NCBI GenBank assembly: GCA_038227875.1
Contig: JBBRPR010000046.1
Coordinates: forward strand, 8,261 to 72,260
From: Planctomycetota bacterium
Lineage (GTDB): Bacteria; Planctomycetota; SZUA-567; H5-PLA8
Length of the DNA stretch: 64,000 nt
Direction: 5' to 3'
Each line of letters opens with the position of its first letter. Within the stretch, counting starts at the first letter, position 1. Under the pieces are notes generated by a model. The model worked only from the letters and a program-made list of their open reading frames with translations. It did no database searches and was not told where the DNA came from. Below, in pieces: positions 2,271 to 23,372 of this stretch. Both the position numbers and the translations under genes were made by a program.

Positions 2271-3983
2271 TCAACGACTAAGCGAGTACCGAGTTTCAGC
2301 CAGATGGTACAGGCGTTTCCAGACCAGACGGTTGAAGAGCACGACCACCATGGACATGACCACGACCGCGGCGGCCAGGCGCGAGAGATTACCTTTTGCG
2401 AAGGCGAAGCTGATCTCGCCACCCAGCCCGGACCACGCGCGGTGATTCGTATCAATGAACTCTGCCACGATGCTGGTGTTCCACGCGCCGCCTGCGGCAG
2501 TCACCCATCCCGTAACGAGATACGGAAACACGCCGGGAAAGTAGATTTGCCTGAAGCGCTGCCAGCCGGTGATGTTGTAGCTCTCCGCCGCCTCGCGAAT
2601 GTCGGCGGGAATCGCCATGGCTCCGGCCACCACGTTGAACACGATGTACCACATCGTACCCAGCAGCATCAGCGCGATGCTGGCCCAATCGATATCGATT
2701 CCCAGAGTCCCCATCAGCGCCAGCACCATGGGAAACAGCATCGGCGCGGGAAACGAGGCTACAATCTGCACGATCGGTTGCAGCGAGCGGGACAGCTTGG
2801 GCGAAAGTCCGATAACCAGACCCAGTGGCAAGGCAATCAGCGTGGCGATGGCCGTGGACGCCAGCACGCGGCCCAGGGTCACAAACGAGACCTGAACCAG
2901 ATTGCTCCAGGTCATCGCGTCATTCTGGCGGAGCAGATTAAACAATTGAATGCCGCCCCAGCCCAGAATGATCAGAAGCAGGAGGAAGAGGATCGAGGAA
3001 AAAATCTTGCTGCTGCGCGTCGCCTTGGGTGCTTCGACCGCGACTGGCTTGACGCGCGCCGGCCTCTCTTTCCGTTTGAAGAAGAGGCCTTCCAGAAACG
3101 CCAGGATGCGCGAGCGGCGCAGAAAATCGAGGAACCAGGATTCCATCGCTTCAGCCTGGCCGGCGTCGTCGAGCCGGAATTTCTGCGACCAGACCACCAG
3201 CGGGCGCCAGAGCAACTGGTCGAGCGCGATGATCATCAGCATCATCGAAATAATCGCGTAAATCTGCGCGGGGCCGTTCTTCTGCGTCACCGCTTCGCTC
3301 ATGTAGGAACCCAGACCCGGCAGCGTGTTGTCCTTGAATTGCTCGCTGATCATGATGAAAAACCAGCCGCCGGCCATGCTCATCATGCTGTTCCAGACCA
3401 GGCCGATGGTCGAAATCGGAAGCTCGAGCCATTTCAATCGTTCCCACCACGTGAAGTTGTAGAGCGTCGCGGCTTCGTTCAGATTTTCAGGGACCGACCG
3501 GAGCGAATGATAGTAGCTGAAGGTCATGTTCCACGCCTGGCCGGTGAAGATGGTGATGATGGCGGCGAGCTCCAAGCCCACGCGGTTGCTCGGAAAAAGC
3601 GCGACCATGGCGAGGATCAGACCTGGCATGAAACCGAGAATCGGAATGCTCTGAAGAATGTCGAGCATGGGAACGAGCAGTCGTTCGGCGACGTGGTCCT
3701 TCGCGGCCCAGTAACCGTAGACGAGCGTAAAGACAATCGAGAAGACGTATCCGATCAAACCGCGCGTGAGCGTTAGCAGCGTATAATAAGGGAGGAGACT
3801 TGGCGAGAGATCGAACTTCTCTTGAATCTGAGCAACTTTCGGCAGCGCCCATTCGTGTGCGACGCCGAAGAGACCGAAGACCACTCCTGCGAATCCGGCG
3901 AGCAGAATGAAGTCCACCCAGATGCGTCGCGAAACAGAAAGGTAACCCGAGGCTGCGCCCCAAATCTGTCGAAATTTGATCAT
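2271..3983 (-). CDS. ABC transporter permease with two inner-membrane domains (NitT/TauT type)
   Basis: Many TM helices, two EAA loops (NEAATLY, REAAESY), adjacent to the ATPase; start uncertain (3983 or 4052). Confidence 0.9.
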   Translation of the reverse strand: MIKFRQIWGAASGYLSVSRRIWVDFILLAGFAGVVFGLFGVAHEWALPKVAQIQEKFDLSPSLLPYYTLLTLTRGLIGYVFSIVFTLVYGYWAAKDHVAERLLVPMLDILQSIPILGFMPGLILAMVALFPSNRVGLELAAIITIFTGQAWNMTFSYYHSLRSVPENLNEAATLYNFTWWERLKWLELPISTIGLVWNSMMSMAGGWFFIMISEQFKDNTLPGLGSYMSEAVTQKNGPAQIYAIISMMLMIIALDQLLWRPLVVWSQKFRLDDAGQAEAMESWFLDFLRRSRILAFLEGLFFKRKERPARVKPVAVEAPKATRSSKIFSSILFLLLLIILGWGGIQLFNLLRQNDAMTWSNLVQVSFVTLGRVLASTAIATLIALPLGLVIGLSPKLSRSLQPIVQIVASFPAPMLFPMVLALMGTLGIDIDWASIALMLLGTMWYIVFNVVAGAMAIPADIREAAESYNITGWQRFRQIYFPGVFPYLVTGWVTAAGGAWNTSIVAEFIDTNHRAWSGLGGEISFAFAKGNLSRLAAAVVVMSMVVVLFNRLVWKRLYHLAETRYSLSR

Positions 3984-4171
3984 GGAACTTCCATCACGCT
4001 GAACGTCAAATCGCAAGGGGCCGCGAGCGGAACGTAAGTAAAACTTGAACACGGGGTTTGTAACAGACAGTTAGAAAATTGAGATGAGCCAATCGTAAAG
4101 AAAGTGAACTTTTCAAAAGAATAGTTAGGTCGCACGAAATCCCGCGTGATACAGAAAGAGTTCTCAAAAAT

Positions 4172-14917: not shown

Positions 14918-15141
14918 GGATTTGTGCTAGCTCCAAAGCCTGCGCGCTCCCGAGCGCGCACGCTTCGAATACACCCGGTTAGAATGGAGCGTCTGAAAAA
15001 AGTGTGGTTTTGCTTCGCTTGCAGGATTGATTCACGACTTCGTATCTTCCATTGGGAAAAATATGAAGCCCGGCTCTATGGCTGGCACACTGGACAAGTC
15101 GACTTCGTCGATACTTTCAAAGAATACTCGAACAGTGTTAC

Positions 15142-15849
15142 GTGCCGCGAGTTTTGGCAATTGCGCGAGCTTTGGTTCGTTACGCAATCTTTGAAGTGCA
15201 ATTGACTCCGCATCTGGAATCGTTGAGTGCGTGGTGCTGCGACCGACGCTATCTTCAAGCCAATCCGCTCGAGAACGCTGGTGAGATCGACACGACGCCG
15301 GAGGAAACGCGACGCGCGCTCACTGCCGACGAGATCAAGTTGCTACTGTCCAAGTGCAAGCCTGAGAGACGCACTTTGTATAAGCTTTCGATCTGCTCGG
15401 GCCTTCGCAAGAACGAGTTGATGTCGCTTACCGTCGTCGACCTCGACGCCGCTAATTGCTGTCTCCGGCTCCGGCCAGAGTGGACGAAGAACAGGAAATC
15501 AGGCTGGCAACCGCTCCCTGCAGCGTTGACGGCGACCCTTGCCGCTGACGTGGAGGGGCTTCTCCCGACCGCTCCGTTAATCCACGTACCCAGCGACGCC
15601 AGTGCAAGATTCGAGACCGACCGTCGAAGAGCGGATTTGAAGAAAGAAACAGAGGACGGGGTCTGCAACTTCGCGTGCCTGCGCCAGACTTATATCACGA
15701 TGGTCAACGATACGGGAGCCACAACCAAAGCAACACAAACACTGACTAGGCACAGTACGCCGTCGTTGACATTCAAAACGTATGCGCGTGCGCGGTCGGC
15801 TGAACTGGTTGGTGTGGTGGAAAAGCTGGCGCTGCTGGTTGGCTCTTGA
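15142..15849 (+). pseudogene. 5'-truncated tyrosine integrase, paralogue of the 16098-17339 integrase
   Basis: From about 15215 it aligns by eye with the neighbouring integrase (YLQANPL..DTTP..RALTADEI vs YLAADPL..DTTP..RELSTDEI); lacks the N-terminal domains; HxxR motif reads ACLR. Confidence 0.75.
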
Positions 15850-15850
15850 A

Positions 15851-16012
15851 TCACTTTGAAGCATCGTCCTCTTTCGGCGTTTCTTTATCCTTGCGAAAGT
15901 GCCGGTAGGTCACAAAAAGAATTATGACTAACACAATAAAACCTAGAACAACAATTACTATGCCTTCCAATCCGATTAGGAATAGTCCGGCCAAACCATC
16001 AGCAAGGAACAA
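15851..16012 (-). CDS. Small single-pass membrane protein (53 aa), absent from the ORF track
   Basis: GGAGA RBS then TTG; MFLADGLAGLFLIGLEGIVIVVLGFIVLVIILFVTYRHFRKDKETPKEDDASK* = TM helix plus charged tail. Confidence 0.55.
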   Translation of the reverse strand: MFLADGLAGLFLIGLEGIVIVVLGFIVLVIILFVTYRHFRKDKETPKEDDASK

Positions 16013-16097
16013 AGCTTTTCTCCGCTTGAACCACTCAAAAGCGTAGCGAGGGTCTTCTACGGCGCACTACACGAATGGAGCGTTAGGTGGTTTGTAG

Positions 16098-17339
16098 TTA
16101 TACGCCCTGAGGGACTTGAACCCCCAATGGAATCTCGACGGGTTTCATACAAACACTAGCGGCATGACTGTTTACAATGTCACCCTCCGCCCCTACTGCA
16201 AGTCGTTGGGTTGCCATGGGGGCGGCGGCGGTCTGTTTCAGGGCTTCGGCAACAGATTCGGCCACGGCCCGCATTCGTTGCGCGTCCGGCTTGGCGTACG
16301 TGCTCATGGACATAGTGGCGGATGAGTGCCGGGCCAGCGTCATGATCGTTTTCAGGTCAGCCCCCGACTTCACCACGGAATTGATATAGCTCACCCGCAG
16401 GCTGTGGAACGTCGCCTTACCCGCGCCTTTGATTTCCTTTGTGATTCCAGCGTTGTCAAAGTCCCGGTCCAAATTCGCGCAACACGTTTCTTGGAGCGGC
16501 ATCGGCAAAAGCGGTGCGTCCGGCTTCTTGCCGATCGACAGCGCGGCCAGTTCGTCGGCCAGTTCACGGGCAATGGGTTGCCGGGCGTCGCGGCGGTCCT
16601 TGCAGAATTCAGCGGCCAGCGGCAACGACGGCCCGAACATGTCCAGATTGCCCACGGTCAGGTTGCGTAGTTCATTTTGCCGGTAGCCCGTTGCCAGGGC
16701 CACGCGATAGACCAAAGCCCTGTGCGGCGGCGCGGTGGCCAGCAGCTTTGCAATTTCGTCCGTGCTCAATTCGCGGTGCGGCATCTTCGGCGTGGTGTCG
16801 AACGCCACAATCGCGGCCAGCGGATCGGCGGCAAGGTATTGCCGATTCACGCACCAATCGAGGAAAGATGCGATCGCTTCACTGTACCCTTGCACTGTCT
16901 TTTCTGTCAGCGGTCCCGACTCGTCTTGACCGTGGGCCAGCAGTTCGCGCAATGCGATTTCCACGTCCGCCAATTCCACGTCTTGAATCGTCTGTAATTT
17001 CAGACGGTCGCCCCACCATTTCAACGTCCAGCCCTTTTTTCGGGCGTGGACCTTCGACCAACCAAAGCCGCGGCGGCCTCCACAACTTCGGCCCCATGCC
17101 AGATATTCGGACACCGTCGCGGCATAGTCGCGGGCCTTGTCCGATTCCTTCGGCGCGGGGCGGATGCCGTCGCGGATTTCATTTTCAATGATCTGGCGCC
17201 GGTTCGCCGTCCGCTCGGTTTCCGCGTAGCTCGTGGTGCCGGTTGCCTTCCGGCGCCGCCCCTTCCAGTCGCGATACTCGAATTTATAGCGCGGGTGGGG
17301 TTTGCCGTCCTTGTCGAAGGTTTGAAAGACATGTGGCAT
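16098..17339 (-). CDS. Tyrosine recombinase/integrase whose last codons are encoded by the att core
   Basis: Catalytic R (TGYR), K (FCKD), HSLR, ARHS, Y (STYA); ends ...LGVQVPQGV* within the direct repeat. Confidence 0.95.
   Translation of the reverse strand: MPHVFQTFDKDGKPHPRYKFEYRDWKGRRRKATGTTSYAETERTANRRQIIENEIRDGIRPAPKESDKARDYAATVSEYLAWGRSCGGRRGFGWSKVHARKKGWTLKWWGDRLKLQTIQDVELADVEIALRELLAHGQDESGPLTEKTVQGYSEAIASFLDWCVNRQYLAADPLAAIVAFDTTPKMPHRELSTDEIAKLLATAPPHRALVYRVALATGYRQNELRNLTVGNLDMFGPSLPLAAEFCKDRRDARQPIARELADELAALSIGKKPDAPLLPMPLQETCCANLDRDFDNAGITKEIKGAGKATFHSLRVSYINSVVKSGADLKTIMTLARHSSATMSMSTYAKPDAQRMRAVAESVAEALKQTAAAPMATQRLAVGAEGDIVNSHAASVCMKPVEIPLGVQVPQGV
16100..16127. repeat. att site (distal copy): duplicated 3' end of tRNA-Arg
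   Basis: ATACGCCCTGAGGGACTTGAACCCCCAA identical to 21702-21729. Confidence 0.95.
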
Positions 17340-17341
17340 TG

Positions 17342-17554
17342 TCAGCCCTTTCCCTTTCGATGCGGCGCCATTATGAACGCCGATACAGTCAAACCCGCCA
17401 TTCCCGCTTTTTCTCGCAGGCTTTCGTATTCAACTTCGCTCACGCGGATAACCACGTTGCGGCTTTTGGCGCGTTCTCCAAGTGACGGGCGGCCGGTGCG
17501 AAGCGCATCGGCTTCAATCTGTGCTTTCGTGCGTCGTTTTCGTTTCATACTCAT
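17342..17554 (-). CDS. Small ribbon-helix-helix (MobC/CopG-like) DNA-binding protein
   Basis: 'VVIRVSEVEYESLREKAGMAGLTVSAFIM' RHH pattern, basic N-terminus with GRP; directly upstream of the integrase. Confidence 0.7.
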   Translation of the reverse strand: MSMKRKRRTKAQIEADALRTGRPSLGERAKSRNVVIRVSEVEYESLREKAGMAGLTVSAFIMAPHRKGKG

Positions 17555-17579
17555 ACTCTACTTTACGCATAACAATAAT

Positions 17580-17942
17580 TCAAGAAGCTTCGAGTTTTCT
17601 TGCGGCCCGTTCGGCGTCGCGGACCTGCCGTTCGGCGCGGGCTTCAATGTGGGCAAGAACTTTGCCGGTAAGCCAAGTGGACTTCCCCGCGAATCGGAAC
17701 GGCGGCGGAAGTTCATGGCGTGACACCATTCGCCGGACGGTGCGTTTGGAAAGGTTCAACGCGGCCGACAGGGCGCATTCATCCAGCAGCGTCCGTTCCG
17801 GCAACGTCGCCAGCGCGGTGATCGTCCGACCCTGCCCGGCAGGCTTGGGTACGTCAATCGGCACAGGTGCCGGCGGCGGGAGCGCGCTTGCATGCGTGTT
17901 TTCCGGCGCCGTGGGAACGGTCGCGTCATCGTTGCTTGTCAT
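17580..17942 (-). CDS. AlpA/excisionase-like helix-turn-helix protein
   Basis: 'LLDECALSAALNLSKRTVRRMVSRHELPPPFRFAGKSTW'; ATG at 17942 overlaps the Prim-Pol stop. Confidence 0.8.
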   Translation of the reverse strand: MTSNDDATVPTAPENTHASALPPPAPVPIDVPKPAGQGRTITALATLPERTLLDECALSAALNLSKRTVRRMVSRHELPPPFRFAGKSTWLTGKVLAHIEARAERQVRDAERAARKLEAS

Positions 17943-19159
17943 TCCGGTAATCCCCAAATCTCGAATGGCCAAAGGACAATGAATTTACTTGCCGGCGCGC
18001 CCGGCACGTTCTTCGCTCGATACGTGCACTGCAATAACGGTTCTGGCTTCTGTTTAAGTTTGTTGATCAACCACCACCCGCGTTTGGCATCGGCGAGCTG
18101 TAGCAAGGGCTTCAACATTCGACCGGAGAATTTAAAGTCACGGCCTTTGCCAGCCCACCTTTGCATTTCGATGGCAATGGCAGCGACCATTTGAAGCTCG
18201 GACGACTTGTACACCAGGACACAGCGCGGCAGGGGTCGGGACTGCACGGCCTGCCAGGCGATCTGTATAGGCTTTTCATCAAGTGTCACCCGCGCCGAAT
18301 TATACCCCCGCTGCAGTTTGTCGCGGTACTCGTCTTCCGATACCCCGGCACGAAAGAATGGTCTGGCATGAGACACCCACTTATTTTCAAGCTGTTCGTA
18401 TTCACACCGCGTCAGTTCCCGACCCCACCGCTTTTCGAGCGTAATCAGCACACGGCCAAATCGAAAACATGCGGCGTCGTTTGTGTGCACTTTCTTCGGC
18501 AGTGACTCTTGCAGAACATACTTTAATTCACTTACGGATATGCCGCAGTGGTTGCTGTGTACTGTTTCGCATGCCGCAGTGGTTGCTGTGTCGTCTGTGT
18601 TAGCTGTGAGTGCTGTGTCTTCTGTGTTAGCTGTAGTCGTTAGAGTGTTTATTAAAGTTTCGCACTCTTGACCCAGTCCGGCCGCAAACGGATCTACTTC
18701 CCGCACGGCCCCCGGCGGCAGCGGCACCAGCCATTCGTAGATGCAGCCACTTGGATGCAGTGACGGCGGCAGCAAGCAGTACCCGCCTTTCCCGCGCAAT
18801 TCACCGTCCTTGACCTTGATCGTTCGGATCGTGGTTTTGCTGGTGAAGTAGACGTGTCGGCCACGGGCGGTCACCACGGTCGGCAGCGTGCGAGCGAGTT
18901 CCGGAAAATCCGCCGCCCACGATTCATAAGTTTCCAGGGTGTCAAAGTCACGGCAGCACAGCCCGCCAGACACCGGTCCGAACACGACTGCCAGACCCGT
19001 GACGCTCGGCTGTTTGAACCATGTGGACAATTCCCCGTCGGTTGCCCGTCGCGACTGAAACGTCTTCCAGCTTTGCAGCGCGGCGCGTTTGTCCTTGCCG
19101 ATCGGAATGACAGACCAGCCACGGCGGGCGTAGGCACAGGCGTTATCTAACAATGTCAT
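17939..19159 (-). CDS. Bifunctional DNA primase/polymerase (Prim-Pol) domain replication protein
   Basis: 'YARRGWSVIPI', 'CCRDFD', 'TARGRHVYF', 'YCLLPPSLHPSGCIYEW' are Prim-Pol motifs; no helicase Walker motif. Confidence 0.88.
   Translation of the reverse strand: MTLLDNACAYARRGWSVIPIGKDKRAALQSWKTFQSRRATDGELSTWFKQPSVTGLAVVFGPVSGGLCCRDFDTLETYESWAADFPELARTLPTVVTARGRHVYFTSKTTIRTIKVKDGELRGKGGYCLLPPSLHPSGCIYEWLVPLPPGAVREVDPFAAGLGQECETLINTLTTTANTEDTALTANTDDTATTAACETVHSNHCGISVSELKYVLQESLPKKVHTNDAACFRFGRVLITLEKRWGRELTRCEYEQLENKWVSHARPFFRAGVSEDEYRDKLQRGYNSARVTLDEKPIQIAWQAVQSRPLPRCVLVYKSSELQMVAAIAIEMQRWAGKGRDFKFSGRMLKPLLQLADAKRGWWLINKLKQKPEPLLQCTYRAKNVPGAPASKFIVLWPFEIWGLPE
18540..18660. repeat. Iteron-like repeat array with AT-rich flank inside the Prim-Pol gene (candidate origin)
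   Basis: ATGCCGCAGTGGTTGCTGTGT at 18540 and 18571; TGCTGTGTC(G/T)TCTGTGTTAGCTGT at 18584 and 18611; then TGTTTATTAAAGTTT. Confidence 0.7.
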
Positions 19160-19449
19160 TGGCGGGTGCCTTTCGGGCGTTCAACCAATTGCCAAACCCG
19201 CTCCAAGTGGCGTTGCGACTCAGGCGTCACGGCCGGCGCGCAGCCGATGCACTCAATGATGCCAGCACAAAACAGCGCGTTCACAACGTGGCCGATTCGG
19301 GGAGTGCCGGGGATTCCGTACTTCTTGCGAGTACGGCTTGCCGTGGTCGGTCCGGTACCCAATTCTGTAAGAAAGCAGCGCCTGAAATCCGGCGCGGGAT
19401 CCAAAACTGGCGGCTCACCAGCGGCAGAAAACAAGTCATCGCTTGTCAT
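19156..19449 (-). CDS. Hypothetical element protein
   Basis: GGAG RBS, ATG at 19449, stop overlaps the Prim-Pol start (ATGA). Confidence 0.6.
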   Translation of the reverse strand: MTSDDLFSAAGEPPVLDPAPDFRRCFLTELGTGPTTASRTRKKYGIPGTPRIGHVVNALFCAGIIECIGCAPAVTPESQRHLERVWQLVERPKGTRQ

Positions 19450-19639
19450 TGCCGCTCCAGTCCGAATGATTCTTGGACTCCAGGAAGGCGAATAGCCGTG
19501 CTCGATCGAATCGAATGGACTTGTCGGGCAAGAAGATTGCTGGAAGCAAGCCACGGCGGGCAAGCCTTGCCGCTTTGCCGTTTGGCAGCTTTAACAATTC
19601 ATCTACTTCGGTGGGTGTGAGAAACTCAGACACGCGCAA
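19436..19639 (-). CDS. Excisionase-like HTH (HTH_17/MerR-like) protein
   Basis: 'FLTPTEVDELLKL...ARLARRGLLPAIFL...IRFDRARLFAFLE'. Confidence 0.75.
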   Translation of the reverse strand: MRVSEFLTPTEVDELLKLPNGKAARLARRGLLPAIFLPDKSIRFDRARLFAFLESKNHSDWSGNDKR

Positions 19640-19690
19640 ACCCTCACTTTCCGAGAGTATTAACGCTTGTCGATAGCGGGATGTGGGCGG

Positions 19691-20380
19691 TCAGTTTTGC
19701 GGGGAGTTGCGGGAAGTCGACAGTTTTCGGTATTCGCGTGCACTTCCAGACCTGTTGTTGTGTTCTAAAAAGTGGGCTTTGGTCATCGCGTTCAACCAAT
19801 CGGTTCGAGTTGTGCGATCGTACTTGTTTCCGAGCGTTCCGGCCCTGAACCATGTGCCCGTCGTTTTAGCAACAGCTTCTAAAAAGTATTGATGCACGGC
19901 CTCCCCAATTCCGCTGGGACAGGTCGGCTGTTTACTCGCCACTTCGCCGCTGAATAGCCGATTTCGAACCAATGCCCGCTCCAAGTCTCTTGCAAGTTGC
20001 GTCGGGAAGGACCGTACGCGCTCTAACGTTCGCTCCCAGTGTCCGGCCTCTGCCAGGTCCACAGCGTCTTTCCAATCGTTTTCTAACTGTCGCTGTCTGT
20101 CGATGAAATCCGTAAGGACATTGAGCTCTTGTTCGTGAAGGGGGTATTTTTCAGTGACGGCAATTTCTTTGCACACATTGCCGAAAAGCGTCTCTTTCCA
20201 GTTGCGATCGCTCAAGTACACGGACATTTGCGAAGGACCAACGGCGCCATGTCCTCTGACTTTCAGGCTGCCTGTTACGCCGTCGAGTCGTTCGGACAGT
20301 TCTTGACCGTAACGCGCTCGCTCTGTGTCGATCGCCTTTTGGCCTTCGGTGCGTACTGCATCCCAATTCGGTGCATTCAT
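19691..20380 (-). CDS. Hypothetical element protein, possible C-terminal winged helix
   Basis: 229-aa ORF co-oriented with the element; C-terminus 'TTRTDWLNAMTKAHFLEH...AREYR' is wHTH-like by eye. Confidence 0.55.
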   Translation of the reverse strand: MNAPNWDAVRTEGQKAIDTERARYGQELSERLDGVTGSLKVRGHGAVGPSQMSVYLSDRNWKETLFGNVCKEIAVTEKYPLHEQELNVLTDFIDRQRQLENDWKDAVDLAEAGHWERTLERVRSFPTQLARDLERALVRNRLFSGEVASKQPTCPSGIGEAVHQYFLEAVAKTTGTWFRAGTLGNKYDRTTRTDWLNAMTKAHFLEHNNRSGSAREYRKLSTSRNSPQN

Positions 20381-20471
20381 GGCGCCGCTCCAGCGCTGCT
20401 CATTTGGTTATGCCGGGGGCTGTCCAGTTGAGCGACTGGACGGGGAGCTACCCCTGCCCCCAGCTGTGCTC

Positions 20472-20984
20472 TCAATGCTGCCGATTCAGAGAGCGGTAGA
20501 TCACAATCCAGACGCCGAGCAGCGTAGGCCAAAAGACTAAATTGGAGAGGGTGCACGTAACGAACAGGTGGAAGATCCCCGCCGACGACATGCCTCCGCC
20601 TGACAGCGATACGACATCAACAAACGAGATTACTGCGAAGATGACAGCAACGCACGTGCTCCACACCAGCCACCGATTGCCAGCCTGTTTACTCTCAAGC
20701 ACCAACGTAACGAGGTTGGTTTCGGTACTGCGATCATTGCTGGCTGGCGCAACGGCCCGCTCGAACTTCGCGCCAGTCCTGCCGGAACTTTGGTCCCATG
20801 CAGAGCGAGCGGATGGCGTTTCGCTGCGGGTCCCTTGGTTCCCCCCAGCGCCAACCGCGTTAGCAGCTTTCTGCGCTTCTCTGTGGGTACGGAATATTCC
20901 GGGGCTGCAATGCTCGCAGACACTCTTACCCGACGACGAAGTTAACAACTCGGCCGCCTGCCCGCAGTTCTCGCATTGTTCCAT
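20472..20984 (-). CDS. Zinc-finger-containing two-TM membrane protein (element cargo)
   Basis: CENC...CEHC at the N-terminus, two hydrophobic helices at the C-terminus, GAGGAG RBS. Confidence 0.65.
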   Translation of the reverse strand: MEQCENCGQAAELLTSSSGKSVCEHCSPGIFRTHREAQKAANAVGAGGNQGTRSETPSARSAWDQSSGRTGAKFERAVAPASNDRSTETNLVTLVLESKQAGNRWLVWSTCVAVIFAVISFVDVVSLSGGGMSSAGIFHLFVTCTLSNLVFWPTLLGVWIVIYRSLNRQH

Positions 20985-21333
20985 AGGCTCCTCACTTCAC
21001 TTTTTGCCCAAGGTTATTTTCATCCATTGCGTCTGTGATCCGCCGGTTCGGACCGATCGTCACATTCAGGTTGGGAGTCTATCGCGCATGCCCCGCAACG
21101 CAGCAATAAAGCGCCGCCAGCTGCTGCATTCTGGGGCGTTTTCATAGGTGGATTTCCCTTGGGGGCTGTGTGGAATTTAAAGACGGGCACGCGCTTTGGG
21201 GTGTCATCGGCTAACCAGTGGGGGTGCCGGGCACCTTAGAAAATTAGGCGACTACGCAACTCGAATCGTATCCGATCGGTGCCAACGCTTGCTTTTCAAT
21301 GCACGCGAATGCCGGGAGCAGTGGTCGGGGTGG

Positions 21334-21729
21334 TCACACGGGGCGAAATAGAAAGGCCACGTCTTCACCGTGGCCCATTCCCTGCATTTGCGGCGCGTCT
21401 GGCGAGCTCTCTACTTCGAACCCGATGTCTTTGACCATCGCGACGATGCCAGCGCGTAGCGCGTCCGGCAGCTTATCCCACGCGGCCACGACGGCGGCAA
21501 GATCGGCGGGCAGCGGATTCCGTTGGGTTGCCATTGGGTTGAACGCGTGGCCGGACGCGGTGTCTGTCTGTCGCGGTTGCGTCCGCTCATTGTCGAGCGT
21601 CGCTCGTACAACGTCGGGTGTCTTTTGTTGTTCGACGAATTGCGGCGCGGATTGACTCGAAACTGACGCGGTCCCGTCCGCTCTTGTAACGCCTTTAGAG
21701 AATACGCCCTGAGGGACTTGAACCCCCAA
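21334..21729 (-). other. Detached in-frame C-terminal portion of the integrase (rejoined on excision)
   Basis: Open frame starts within the att core with the same LGVQVPQGV peptide that ends the integrase and runs 122 more codons. Confidence 0.7.
21702..21729. repeat. att site (tRNA-proximal copy)
   Basis: Identical to 16100-16127; spans the T-arm and 3' acceptor strand of the tRNA. Confidence 0.95.
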
Positions 21730-21776
21730 CCTCCTGGTTCGAAGCCAGGCACTCTATCCAGTTGAGCTAAGGGCGC
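21703..21776 (-). tRNA. tRNA-Arg (anticodon TCG), CCA not encoded
   Basis: GCGCCCT acceptor, GCTC/GAGT D-stem, CCTGG-CT TCG AA-CCAGG anticodon arm, GGGGG-TTCAAGT-CCCTC T-arm, AGGGCGT-A. Confidence 0.96.
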
Positions 21777-21924
21777 TTAAATTTTCAATGTTGTTCGACG
21801 CTCATCTTACGCGGCACTCCGTCGCATTGCAAACGGGCTCCGAATTCAACCCGCGCCGGCGGCCGGATCCGGTGTAGATTGTTTTTGAAATTTGAAAACG
21901 CGACAGTGATCGGAGGCGACGGGG

Positions 21925-23372
21925 ATGCGGCTGCTTTCTGCGGCGGACATGCATATCAGCGATGCGGCGTCGTGCCGCGTGGCGCTGGAGTGCTTTGAGT
22001 GCGCGCTGCGGCAATTCCGCCCCGACGTCGTGGCCTGTCTGGGCGATCTTTTCGATAACCGCACGTTCCTGGAACAGTTCGGCCCTGAGTTTCACCGCCG
22101 ATTGCGCGCACTACATCCGGATTGGTTGTTTGTGTTTGGCAATCACGATGGCTCCGGAAATTCGCGAGGGCAGAACGACGATGGCTGGCGGACGTTTTGC
22201 GACCTCTTCGGTCCGGCTCAATACACTCGCGAAATCGGCGGCCACCATTTTGTCGTGCTGGCGAATGTACAGTCGGATTCCGGTTGGCAGGAGTTTGCTG
22301 ATGCGGAAACCCGCGCGGGCTCGGTTGTGCTGGCGCACCGGCCGCTGGACGCGGCCACGATCGAACGTTGCGCTGGCCGGGGCGCGCGGCTGATTCTCGC
22401 CGGCGATGCACATTCTTCTAAGATTTCCCGCAGCGCTGATGATTCTTGCGAGCAGCGCGTGCAGCCGCCGTTTCTGTTCGGCGGCCGGCTGGGAGACGCC
22501 GCGGGATTCAACGTCATCGATTTTGATGACGATGGGTATTCCTGCCAGTGGGTGACGCAGACGCTGCCTGCGATGCCGGGCAATTCGCGCGTCGTCGAGA
22601 ATGCGTGGCAACCGCGCTGGCGCACAAAGTCGGAGTCGAATTTTCCCGAACTGGCGGAGTGGTGCGACGTGGAGCCCTGTCGCTCGGACGAGTACCTTTG
22701 GTTCGGCGGCGCCGCGCGGCTGCAATGTTATCGTTCCGGCGTGCTGCACTGGGAGACGGACACAGCTTCGGCGACATGTGTCCGCCCGTCCATGTCCATC
22801 ACGGGGAGCGCAGCTTTCTGATCATCGGCGGAACGTGGGTCCCGGCGCCGTCTGGAACTTTTGCGTCGGTGATCGTGGTCGATCCGTTCACGGGAGACGA
22901 ATTTTATCGCGTGCCGGTGATCGGCGTGTCTCAATCGCCCACGGTTGTGGACGGTGTGATGTACATCGTCGGGCAGTGGCGGGAGATCATCGCAGTCGAC
23001 GTTGCGACAGGGAGGGAGTTGTGGCGCCGGCGCAGTCAGGTGGAGACGCCCGCCACGGCCGACCTCTCCTGGCATGATTGCCGTACAGGCGGAGGCTGGT
23101 CGGTCTGCGCGCCGGCGGTCGCCAAGCATGTCTGGACCGTGAACGCGCGCGGCGATTTGTTCGGCTATGACCGCCACAGCGGGCACGAGCGGTTTGTGTA
23201 TCCCATGGCCGTGCCACTCAACGCCGCGCCGACCTGCCCGTTTGCCAATCGGTTGGCTTGCGCACCCAAGGCGTTTCTCATCGCAGAGCAGACGCACGGC
23301 GGCGTGGTATTCAGCGTTAATGGGCAACGCATTAACGACAGCACCGGTGAGTTGTTGACGGCATCACGTTGA
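21925..23372 (+). pseudogene. Metallophosphoesterase plus PQQ-like beta-propeller protein, split by a frameshift near 22750-22765
   Basis: Frame 1 has DxH (ADMH), GD (LGDLFD), GNHD, AH, GDAH; overlapping frame 2 has propeller repeats (SPTVVDGVMYI, AVDVATGRELWR, GYDRHSGHERF). Confidence 0.65.

Follow-up and report, generated by a model that had tools for sequence, protein, structure and literature searches.

The 64,000-nucleotide stretch of DNA analysed here (the window) is part of contig JBBRPR010000046.1 of a Planctomycetota bacterium (assembly GCA_038227875.1). It holds a 5,602-bp element, seated in the 3' end of a tRNA-Arg(TCG) gene, that carries its own tyrosine integrase gene (int). The element is bounded by two attachment (att) repeats, which form a perfect 28-bp direct repeat (0 mismatches; sequence ATACGCCC...CCCCAA), and the genes between the repeats are all on the minus strand (Table 1). 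A comparable repeat pair was not found in any of 100 shuffled sequences. The repeat corresponds to the 3' end of the tRNA plus one base, since ARAGORN places tRNA-Arg(TCG) at the position given in Table 1. An intact tRNA gene, a displaced fragment of it and an integrase gene in between were all present, which agrees with the Islander definition of a tRNA-integrating island in the relevant passage of PMC4383910. Our best explanation, to which as a whole we assign a probability of approximately 80%, is that the region is an integrated Prim-Pol plasmid-like element with the core of its attP site inside its own int gene.

The integrated-state integrase is 413 aa long and its C-terminus (...IPLGVQVPQGV) lies on the distal repeat. 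Read on the minus strand, this copy supplies the last 9 residues, and the TAA stop codon consists of one base of the repeat and two bases of the flanking chromosome. From the copy at the tRNA, the int frame stays open for 122 codons past the core, up to a stop codon at 21334-21336. A scripted in silico join of the element ends gave a single open reading frame (ORF) of 535 aa, with the junction ...QVPQGVFSKGVTRADG.... Within this ORF the att core encodes residues 405-413, C-terminal to the catalytic Y348. The protein belongs to the tyrosine recombinases, as judged from the catalytic R-K-H-R-H/W-Y set and from the recombinase fold in a model of its relative P0017. The family alignment shows no or almost no variation at the catalytic residues R220, K247, H312, R315, H338 and Y348, which are all contained in the 413-aa form. 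Recombination at the 28-bp core necessarily interconverts a 535-aa and a 413-aa gene. The initial annotation of this DNA had proposed the repeat with its LGVQVPQGV end and flank-completed stop codon, the two product lengths, and the retention of all catalytic residues in the short form; the repeat and ORF analysis, the scripted join and the family alignment, respectively, gave the same result. By our own estimate, which was not computed with a tool, an open frame of 122 codons would arise from base composition alone with a chance of approximately 1%, and the weight of the evidence was therefore placed on comparative tests and not on the open frame.

Table 1. Features of the integrated element and of its target gene (positions in the window)
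Feature	Position	Strand	Basis
Distal att core copy (displaced 3' fragment of tRNA-Arg)	16100..16127		exact 28-bp repeat, end of int ORF
int, integrated-state form, tyrosine recombinase, 413 aa	16098..17339	-	PF00589 E 1e-12, phrog_1, family alignment
Candidate arm-type site, int side of core	16204..16221		17/18 identical to 21521-21538
NikA-like ribbon-helix-helix protein, 70 aa	17342..17554	-	PF21983 E 5e-7
HTH_17 protein, 130 aa, directly upstream of int, candidate excisionase	17580..17972	-	PF12728 E 2e-4, below Pfam cut-off
Prim-Pol replication protein, 406 aa	17939..19159	-	PF09250 E 1e-19
HTH_17 protein, 67 aa, candidate second excisionase or regulator	19436..19639	-	PF12728 E 1e-7
Two ORFs within the element, 229 aa and 170 aa	19691..20984	-	ORF list
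Non-conserved 25-aa end of the tail and stop codon	21334..21411	-	alignment with relatives
Conserved C-terminal helix pair motif of the tail (DLAAVVAAWDKLPDALRAGIVAMVKD...)	21412..21507	-	AlphaFold2 helices, invariant W84 and P88
Linker part of the tail frame, ~65 codons, in phase with int	21508..21701	-	open frame, poorly conserved, predicted disordered
Candidate arm-type site, tail side of core	21521..21538		17/18 identical to 16204-16221
Proximal att core copy (3' end of intact tRNA-Arg(TCG))	21702..21729		exact repeat, ARAGORN
tRNA-Arg(TCG), integration target, regenerated by the element	21703..21776	-	ARAGORN

The 131-aa tail frame was compared with 1.84 billion representative proteins, which resulted in 120 matches at E<=1e-3. 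All of these were short (37-227 aa) and had a common block near the C-terminus, a motif of approximately 30 residues with the shape of a helix-turn-helix (HTH; DLAAVVAAW..LP.A.RAGIVAMV, tail consensus P.DLAAVV.AW..LP.AVRAGIVAMVKA). In a 127-sequence alignment the W and the P of 'LP' were invariant in 126 of the 126 aligned homologues, and the D, L, A, G, I, A, M and V positions of the motif were conserved in more than 85%. Only approximately 32 of the 122 tail residues are both conserved and predicted to be structured; these are residues 75-106 of the 131-aa frame. Most tail relatives stop 2-10 residues past the motif (...AMVKA) and the tail in the window runs 25 residues further. The closest tail homologue (P0121, 75% identical) also stops near the end of the motif, without this extension. 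For the tail no Pfam match at E<=1 was found beyond sub-threshold noise, nor any PHROG match, and the Atlas returned only unnamed planctomycete clusters (0.85-0.86, below the lead threshold). The tail profile matched 73 of 401 genomes sampled from Planctomycetota, and 50 of the 243 high-quality ones; the motif was also present in Verrucomicrobiota loci. Four further copies are present in the same 9.3-Mb genome (C113:9603-10139, C11:20157-20231, C11:13930-14220 and C135:3774-4097). The same genome contains a related integrase that is broken across two frames (C121:6191-7661).

Among 39 distinct DNA copies of the motif the nucleotide entropy at codon positions 1, 2 and 3 was 1.08, 0.79 and 1.59 bits, respectively. 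All four Pro codons were used at the invariant proline of the motif, and the invariant Pro and Leu were each encoded by at least four codons. The variation at the third position and the varied Pro codons indicate that selection acts on the motif as a protein and not as a DNA site. In addition, a score for codon usage, trained on this genome, was highest in the int phase, clearly for the part with the motif (0.53 bits/codon, versus -0.55 and -1.18 in the other frames) and, weakly, for the linker (-0.08 versus -0.33 and -0.69).

Conservation past the core could also be explained at the DNA level, by the arm sites of attP to which the integrase or host factors bind. The two segments listed as candidate arm-type sites in Table 1, one on each side of the core, have an exact match of 14 nt in common, and in phage Mx8 (see below) attP function reportedly depends on parts of int to either side of the core. 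For the motif we disfavour this explanation and hold it to be extremely improbable, since the most variable codon position is the third and the invariant residues are variably encoded, and since the shared 14-mer is located in the linker, outside the motif. Arm sites in the linker DNA are compatible with a tail that is conserved as protein. Of 20,000 control pairs of segments drawn from this genome, 47 shared a match of at least 14 nt; as a lead, the pair may represent putative arm-type integrase sites embedded in coding sequence.

Homologues of the integrase were 402 to 630 aa long. BLAST of the tail against them matched the C-terminal ends of eight long ones (E<=0.014), and in the alignment seven close homologues (496-630 aa) have a variable stretch followed by the motif at the end. 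In many shorter homologues the C-terminus is a translation of the T-arm or acceptor of a tRNA, e.g. GFEP or DSNP, showing that the att core overlaps the 3' end of int family-wide. A search with the tail profile among proteins longer than 302 aa yielded 13 proteins. All 13 carry PF00589 and have the motif at most ~10 residues from the C-terminus, and they are encoded on contigs of 2.4-13.5 kb. A metagenome contig of 6,430 bp (L005) has a terminal direct repeat of 127 bp and represents a circle of 6,303 bp, with the same gene order as the element in the window: a Prim-Pol protein (32% identity), an HTH protein (45%) and a fused integrase of 520 aa (49%). The presence of a fused integrase on this circle indicates that free circles of the element family encode the long form. 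A 66%-identical integrase (P0004, 473 aa) is encoded on a contig of 108 kb; its last 50 residues resemble the start of the linker (LFKGLTRTDASG...) and end before the motif. Either a truncated tail or a junction of the attP type inside a large contig could account for this.

The frame relation between int and the motif in integrated relatives was determined in two samples. The integrase-first sample, collected with a 12-sequence alignment as query, consisted of the window together with 80 loci from metagenomes and 80 from genomes (161 in total), and the motif was present in 18 of these. It was fused to int in three loci (L005, L015 and L054) and weakly fused in L042. Two loci had the motif beside int but out of frame (L135 and, weakly, L139), and two had it on the opposite strand (L021 and L027). 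In 11 loci it lay 4-9 kb upstream of int and on its strand, and in 10 of these 11 an att repeat joins the 3' end of int to the region upstream of the motif; in L133 no att repeat links the two. Eight of the 10 repeat-linked loci were in phase, L112 was out of phase and L113 was ambiguous. The tail-first sample consisted of 40 stretches of ~15 kb downstream of the best tail-profile matches on long contigs. A downstream int and a repeat of 23-67 nt were found in 13 of these, 12 being in phase and one ambiguous (L213). The ambiguity in L113 and L213 is due to a 1-nt indel between repeat blocks. Combined, 20 of the 23 elements were in phase, one was out of phase and two were ambiguous (probability of at least 20 of 23 at 1/3, 1.6e-7). 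In all in-phase elements the joined ORF was open through the motif, without a stop codon. The in-frame fusion is maintained family-wide.

The integrated elements in this survey measured 4.9-14.2 kb. Some are kin, with two elements each at Ala-TGC, Asn-GTT, Asp-GTC, Leu-CAA and Ser-TGA; when one element was counted per identified target, 11 isoacceptors and four targets to which no tRNA was assigned were left, all in phase. int runs antisense into the intact tRNA in 13 cases and sense into it in L161, and it is located beside the displaced tRNA fragment in the window and in L204. Integrated forms have 0-54 residues past the core, excised forms 55-122. The tail might be an independent first gene of the operon of the element, in phase with int by coincidence, and its position at the upstream end of a co-directional string of genes would fit this. 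The 20 elements are in phase and free of stop codons with differing cores and orientations, however, and fused proteins are found on circular or small contigs; we disfavour a coincidental phase and regard it as very improbable. The initial annotation had named random frame relations or stop codons past the core, and a lack of coding-type conservation in the tail, as results that would speak against its proposal of a recombination-switched integrase; neither was seen.

The closest relatives of the integrase, L003:3671-4971 and L002:3251-4705 (71% and 73% identity), have different attachment sequences. The L003 integrase runs antisense into an intact tRNA-Glu(TTC), and L002 has the core peptide DAVRIPAGT. 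These differences indicate that target and orientation change fast within the lineage. In two of the 40 tail-first stretches the motif is at the end of a long open frame that was not matched by the integrase profile, one of 468 aa (L203:7759-9162, genome G001) and one of 316 aa (L207:45-992, genome G369). These frames may represent a different class of protein with the same tail.

The structure of the long form was predicted with AlphaFold2 for P0017, a protein from a circular contig, using a 69-row alignment. In this model the recombinase body (residues 1-411) mostly has a predicted local distance difference test score (pLDDT) above 90. Residues 424-482, which include the tRNA-derived peptide, are disordered (pLDDT <50), and two helices follow (487-496 and 501-516; pLDDT ~91). 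Foldseek matched the body to XerA, Tn1549 Int, lambda Int, IntI and Cre (E 1e-11 to 1e-7). When the tail of the window was folded alone, with 90 homologues, helices were predicted at 75-82 and 89-106 (pLDDT 87-95) and the remainder scored 54-68. The amphipathic helix pair proposed in the initial annotation was recovered here; of its '122-aa domain', the helix pair of ~30 aa is structured and the remainder is a disordered linker and a non-conserved end. Docking of the pair on the core was considered as a reading of its high pLDDT in the fused model and rejected, as the pair is equally confident when folded alone. A complex prediction of the integrase with tail residues 66-110, run without controls, scored 0.00, which speaks neither for nor against docking. 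With the att core in a predicted disordered tether, differing cores dictated by the tRNA would be tolerated in the coding region in either orientation.

The closest precedent is the integrase of Mx8. According to the passage on Mx8 in PMC6070905, attP lies within int and integration makes a new 3' end, giving an altered integrase with changed properties; in the passage concerned of PMC4383910, the Mx8 and SSV integrases are described as extending across attP. The Int protein in the deposited Mx8 genome is 533 aa long, with a tRNA-derived 'TGLEP' peptide approximately 110 residues from its end and the excisionase gene uoi just upstream. Integration of Mx8 reportedly swaps 112 residues for 13, and the resulting IntX is said to be less active. 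The likeness to Mx8 Int/IntX (IntP/IntR) concerns the position of a core derived from a tRNA 3' end in the int ORF, past the catalytic tyrosine, such that the C-terminus is swapped and a complete catalytic protein is left. It extends to the dimensions (533 aa and ~110 residues past TGLEP, against 535 aa and a 122-residue tail in the window) and to the excisionase-type gene directly upstream of int (uoi in Mx8, the HTH_17 candidate in the window). The two proteins are not homologous in sequence beyond the generic core, the tail included. BLASTP of the window integrase against Mx8 Int was not significant, a tblastn search of 50,697 phage records with the integrase as query did not retrieve Mx8, and hhalign gave a probability of 94% over the generic recombinase core and of 0.2% for the tail. 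The window integrase appears to work like Mx8 Int but, from these sequence comparisons, stands outside its sequence family. The carriers also differ, Mx8 being a tailed phage of 49.5 kb and the window element being plasmid-like, with Prim-Pol, and 5.6 kb in size. The tail in the window is a conserved module that occurs across many elements and tRNA targets, a statement that we did not find in the literature for the Mx8 tail.

Integrases of the SSV1 type are likewise rewritten by recombination at an att site inside their gene. In the part of PMC8371274 that deals with them, integration splits the protein into inactive N- and C-terminal parts and separates the catalytic domain from the part for multimerisation. 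The gene in the window differs in this respect: its 413-aa form keeps every catalytic residue and the complete fold. In the integration-dependent immunity of mycobacteriophage BPs and its relatives, a system that an abstract on a Gordonia phage also mentions, attP lies inside the repressor gene, and the integration state sets the C-terminus of the repressor. The window element resembles BPs in having attP inside a coding gene, so that the integration state sets the C-terminus of a protein, but only int and its tail frame cross the att core in the window and no repressor-like ORF does. SSV1 and BPs had been put forward as the parallels in the initial annotation; they fit less well, as SSV splits int and BPs switches a repressor, and Mx8 Int/IntX had not been cited. 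In Cre and lambda Int, which have the same recombinase core fold, a C-terminal segment contacts the neighbouring protomer and controls activity. This suggests a way in which a tethered helix pair could act, with the difference that the segment in the window is on a disordered tether of 60-100 residues and can be removed by recombination. A full-text literature search, with subscription journals largely outside its reach, turned up the Mx8, SSV and BPs-type cases but gave no description of the arrangement or the motif in Planctomycetota or their relatives. The principle is already known from Mx8; what is new is the lineage of integrases, the conserved module that can be removed, the placement of att in a disordered linker, and the breadth of occurrence.

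In the mechanism that we propose, the free circle would encode the 535-aa integrase, consisting of the recombinase core, a linker with the tRNA-derived peptide and the conserved helix pair of ~30 residues. Integration would cut int at the core, so that the chromosomal copy ends at 413 aa and the segment with linker and helices comes to lie next to the regenerated tRNA, at a distance of 5.6 kb; excision would restore the fusion of int and tail. By analogy with Mx8 Int/IntX, the long form would be the integration-proficient enzyme, adapted to attP x attB recombination. On the same analogy, the short form may be attenuated or differently directed, or may need the HTH_17 protein for excision, which would stabilise the integrated state. 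For Mx8 this logic is reported as a 'reversible covalent modification'. With its hydrophobic character and many small residues, the second helix (AGIVAMV) suggests contact between proteins in preference to the reading of DNA. Candidate interactions of the helix pair are self-association and docking to the integrase or to the HTH_17 excisionase candidate.

As a tentative extension, which we consider unlikely, the helix pair could be a portable state-reporting module of elements in the PVC (Planctomycetota-Verrucomicrobiota-Chlamydiota) group. When tethered it would switch the integrase to integration, for example by bridging protomers or by holding off the excisionase. When severed it would be a free trans-acting peptide with a role in superinfection control, acting on the short integrase or on incoming related elements, so that one crossover would toggle two proteins. 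Location of the core in a disordered linker would then explain how elements are retargeted to many tRNAs, whichever the orientation, without damage to the enzyme.

Several observations weigh against the proposed switch. In this genome the gene caller gives a separate ORF of 66 aa for the tail, starting from an internal ATG (P0122). Five of the 40 tail-first stretches had a downstream int without a repeat of at least 11 nt, and 20 had no int in reach, contig ends cutting 10 of these 20. In L025, a 9.5-kb element, an internal motif ORF of 57 aa (3817-3987) has no adjoining att repeat and is possibly a free-standing paralogue. The motif adjoins int out of frame in L135 (10896-11186), in the second motif of L231 (11959-12270) and, weakly, in L139; those in L231 and L135 may mark the junction of tandem non-identical elements, or a frameshift. 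In L021 and L027, which have the same sequence, the motif is on the opposite strand and its ORF reads through another tRNA fragment. Among the loci of distant integrase relatives, many of them short, the motif was present in only 11 of the 80 from genomes and 6 of the 80 from metagenomes. The postulated difference between the isoforms is drawn solely from the analogy with Mx8, the tail of which is not homologous to that in the window. Finally, no circle or empty-site joint at the att sites was found in the assembled sediment contigs that hold this copy (15000-22800).

Part of these findings would be expected if the motif were mainly a free-standing small protein made from its own start in the integrated state, for example a regulator or a partner of the integrase acting in trans, and fusion in the circle were an additional or secondary use. 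P0122, the stand-alone copy in L025 and the out-of-frame copies beside int in L135 and L231 fit such a protein. The shortness of all 120 representative matches fits it as well, as does the confident folding of the helix pair on its own. However, gene callers would yield short ORFs from a severed tail anyway. A peptide derived from the T-arm was present in 36 of the 98 orphan tail ORFs in which 25 or more residues precede the motif; these ORFs start in the tRNA-derived peptide, which means that their open frame reaches back into att. tRNA-derived peptides occurred in the orphan tail ORFs at a rate of 6.1 per 1000 aa, versus 0.9-1.2 in two controls. Moreover, the tail alignment showed neither conservation between core and motif nor a conserved start, an independent gene has no need for the conservation of phase found in 20 of 23 elements, and all 13 long proteins that carry the motif are integrases. 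We therefore consider a primarily free-standing protein unlikely. The question raised in the initial annotation, whether database hits of the tail are integrase C-termini or tRNA-adjacent ORFs in frame with att, is answered by the finding of both. The planctomycete orphan ORFs and integrase tails with a DLAAVVAAW-type peptide that it had mentioned were likewise borne out by the tail searches.

Sequence data covering this copy were found in three sequencing sets, all of them Logan assembled contigs from one sediment study, and one of the three may be the source sample; no RNA data set was listed among them. The search for attP junctions that the initial annotation had suggested gave no joint at the att sites in the assembled contigs examined. 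The assembled contig breaks at the tRNA, and its loose end at 21701 is unlike the left flank. This end was considered as an empty site of the same strain, which was ruled out by the mismatch. The lack of an excision junction in assembled contigs would fit a dead remnant, of which the open tail frame is a functionless relic, and so would the unusual 25-aa extension past the motif. In contrast, the two att copies are identical at 28 of 28 positions, int and all other ORFs of the element are open, and the motif residues are intact, by which a dead remnant becomes quite improbable.

For 25 years Mx8 has stood as a curiosity in which the reaction of an enzyme edits, and so regulates, its own gene. 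Our results suggest that a separate integrase lineage uses this logic as a conserved design under selection. The C-terminal module is easy to recognise and many variants exist in nature, so that the idea can be tested at the scale of a family. For island-finding software, an ORF that carries the motif and shares its phase with int across att provides a new signature, and a large class of 'hypothetical' small ORFs beside planctomycete tRNA genes would be explained as severed integrase tails. The placement of a tRNA-dictated core within a disordered linker of the coding region may also be of help to engineers of programmable integrases.

As for the remaining genes of the element, the 130-aa HTH_17 gene adjoins int also in L002, L003, L005, L007, L008, L015, L025 and L042 (tblastn). 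Three ORFs of the element (135, 229 and 170 aa) had no Pfam or PHROG match. Within the Prim-Pol gene three tandem repeats of 27-31 nt were found (18545-18629), which encode a Thr/Ala-rich linker (…TTTANTEDTALTANTDDTATTAA…). A third, degenerate copy of att was sought in the window at up to 3 mismatches and was not found. Just outside the element, a second, N-terminally truncated tyrosine integrase is encoded on the plus strand (15142-15849; 235-aa ORF, PF00589 E 1.5e-8). It matches positions 108-359 of the family profile and reads toward the displaced tRNA fragment at 16100. This gene looks like the remnant of an older occupant of tRNA-Arg, with an orientation of int opposite to that of the present element.

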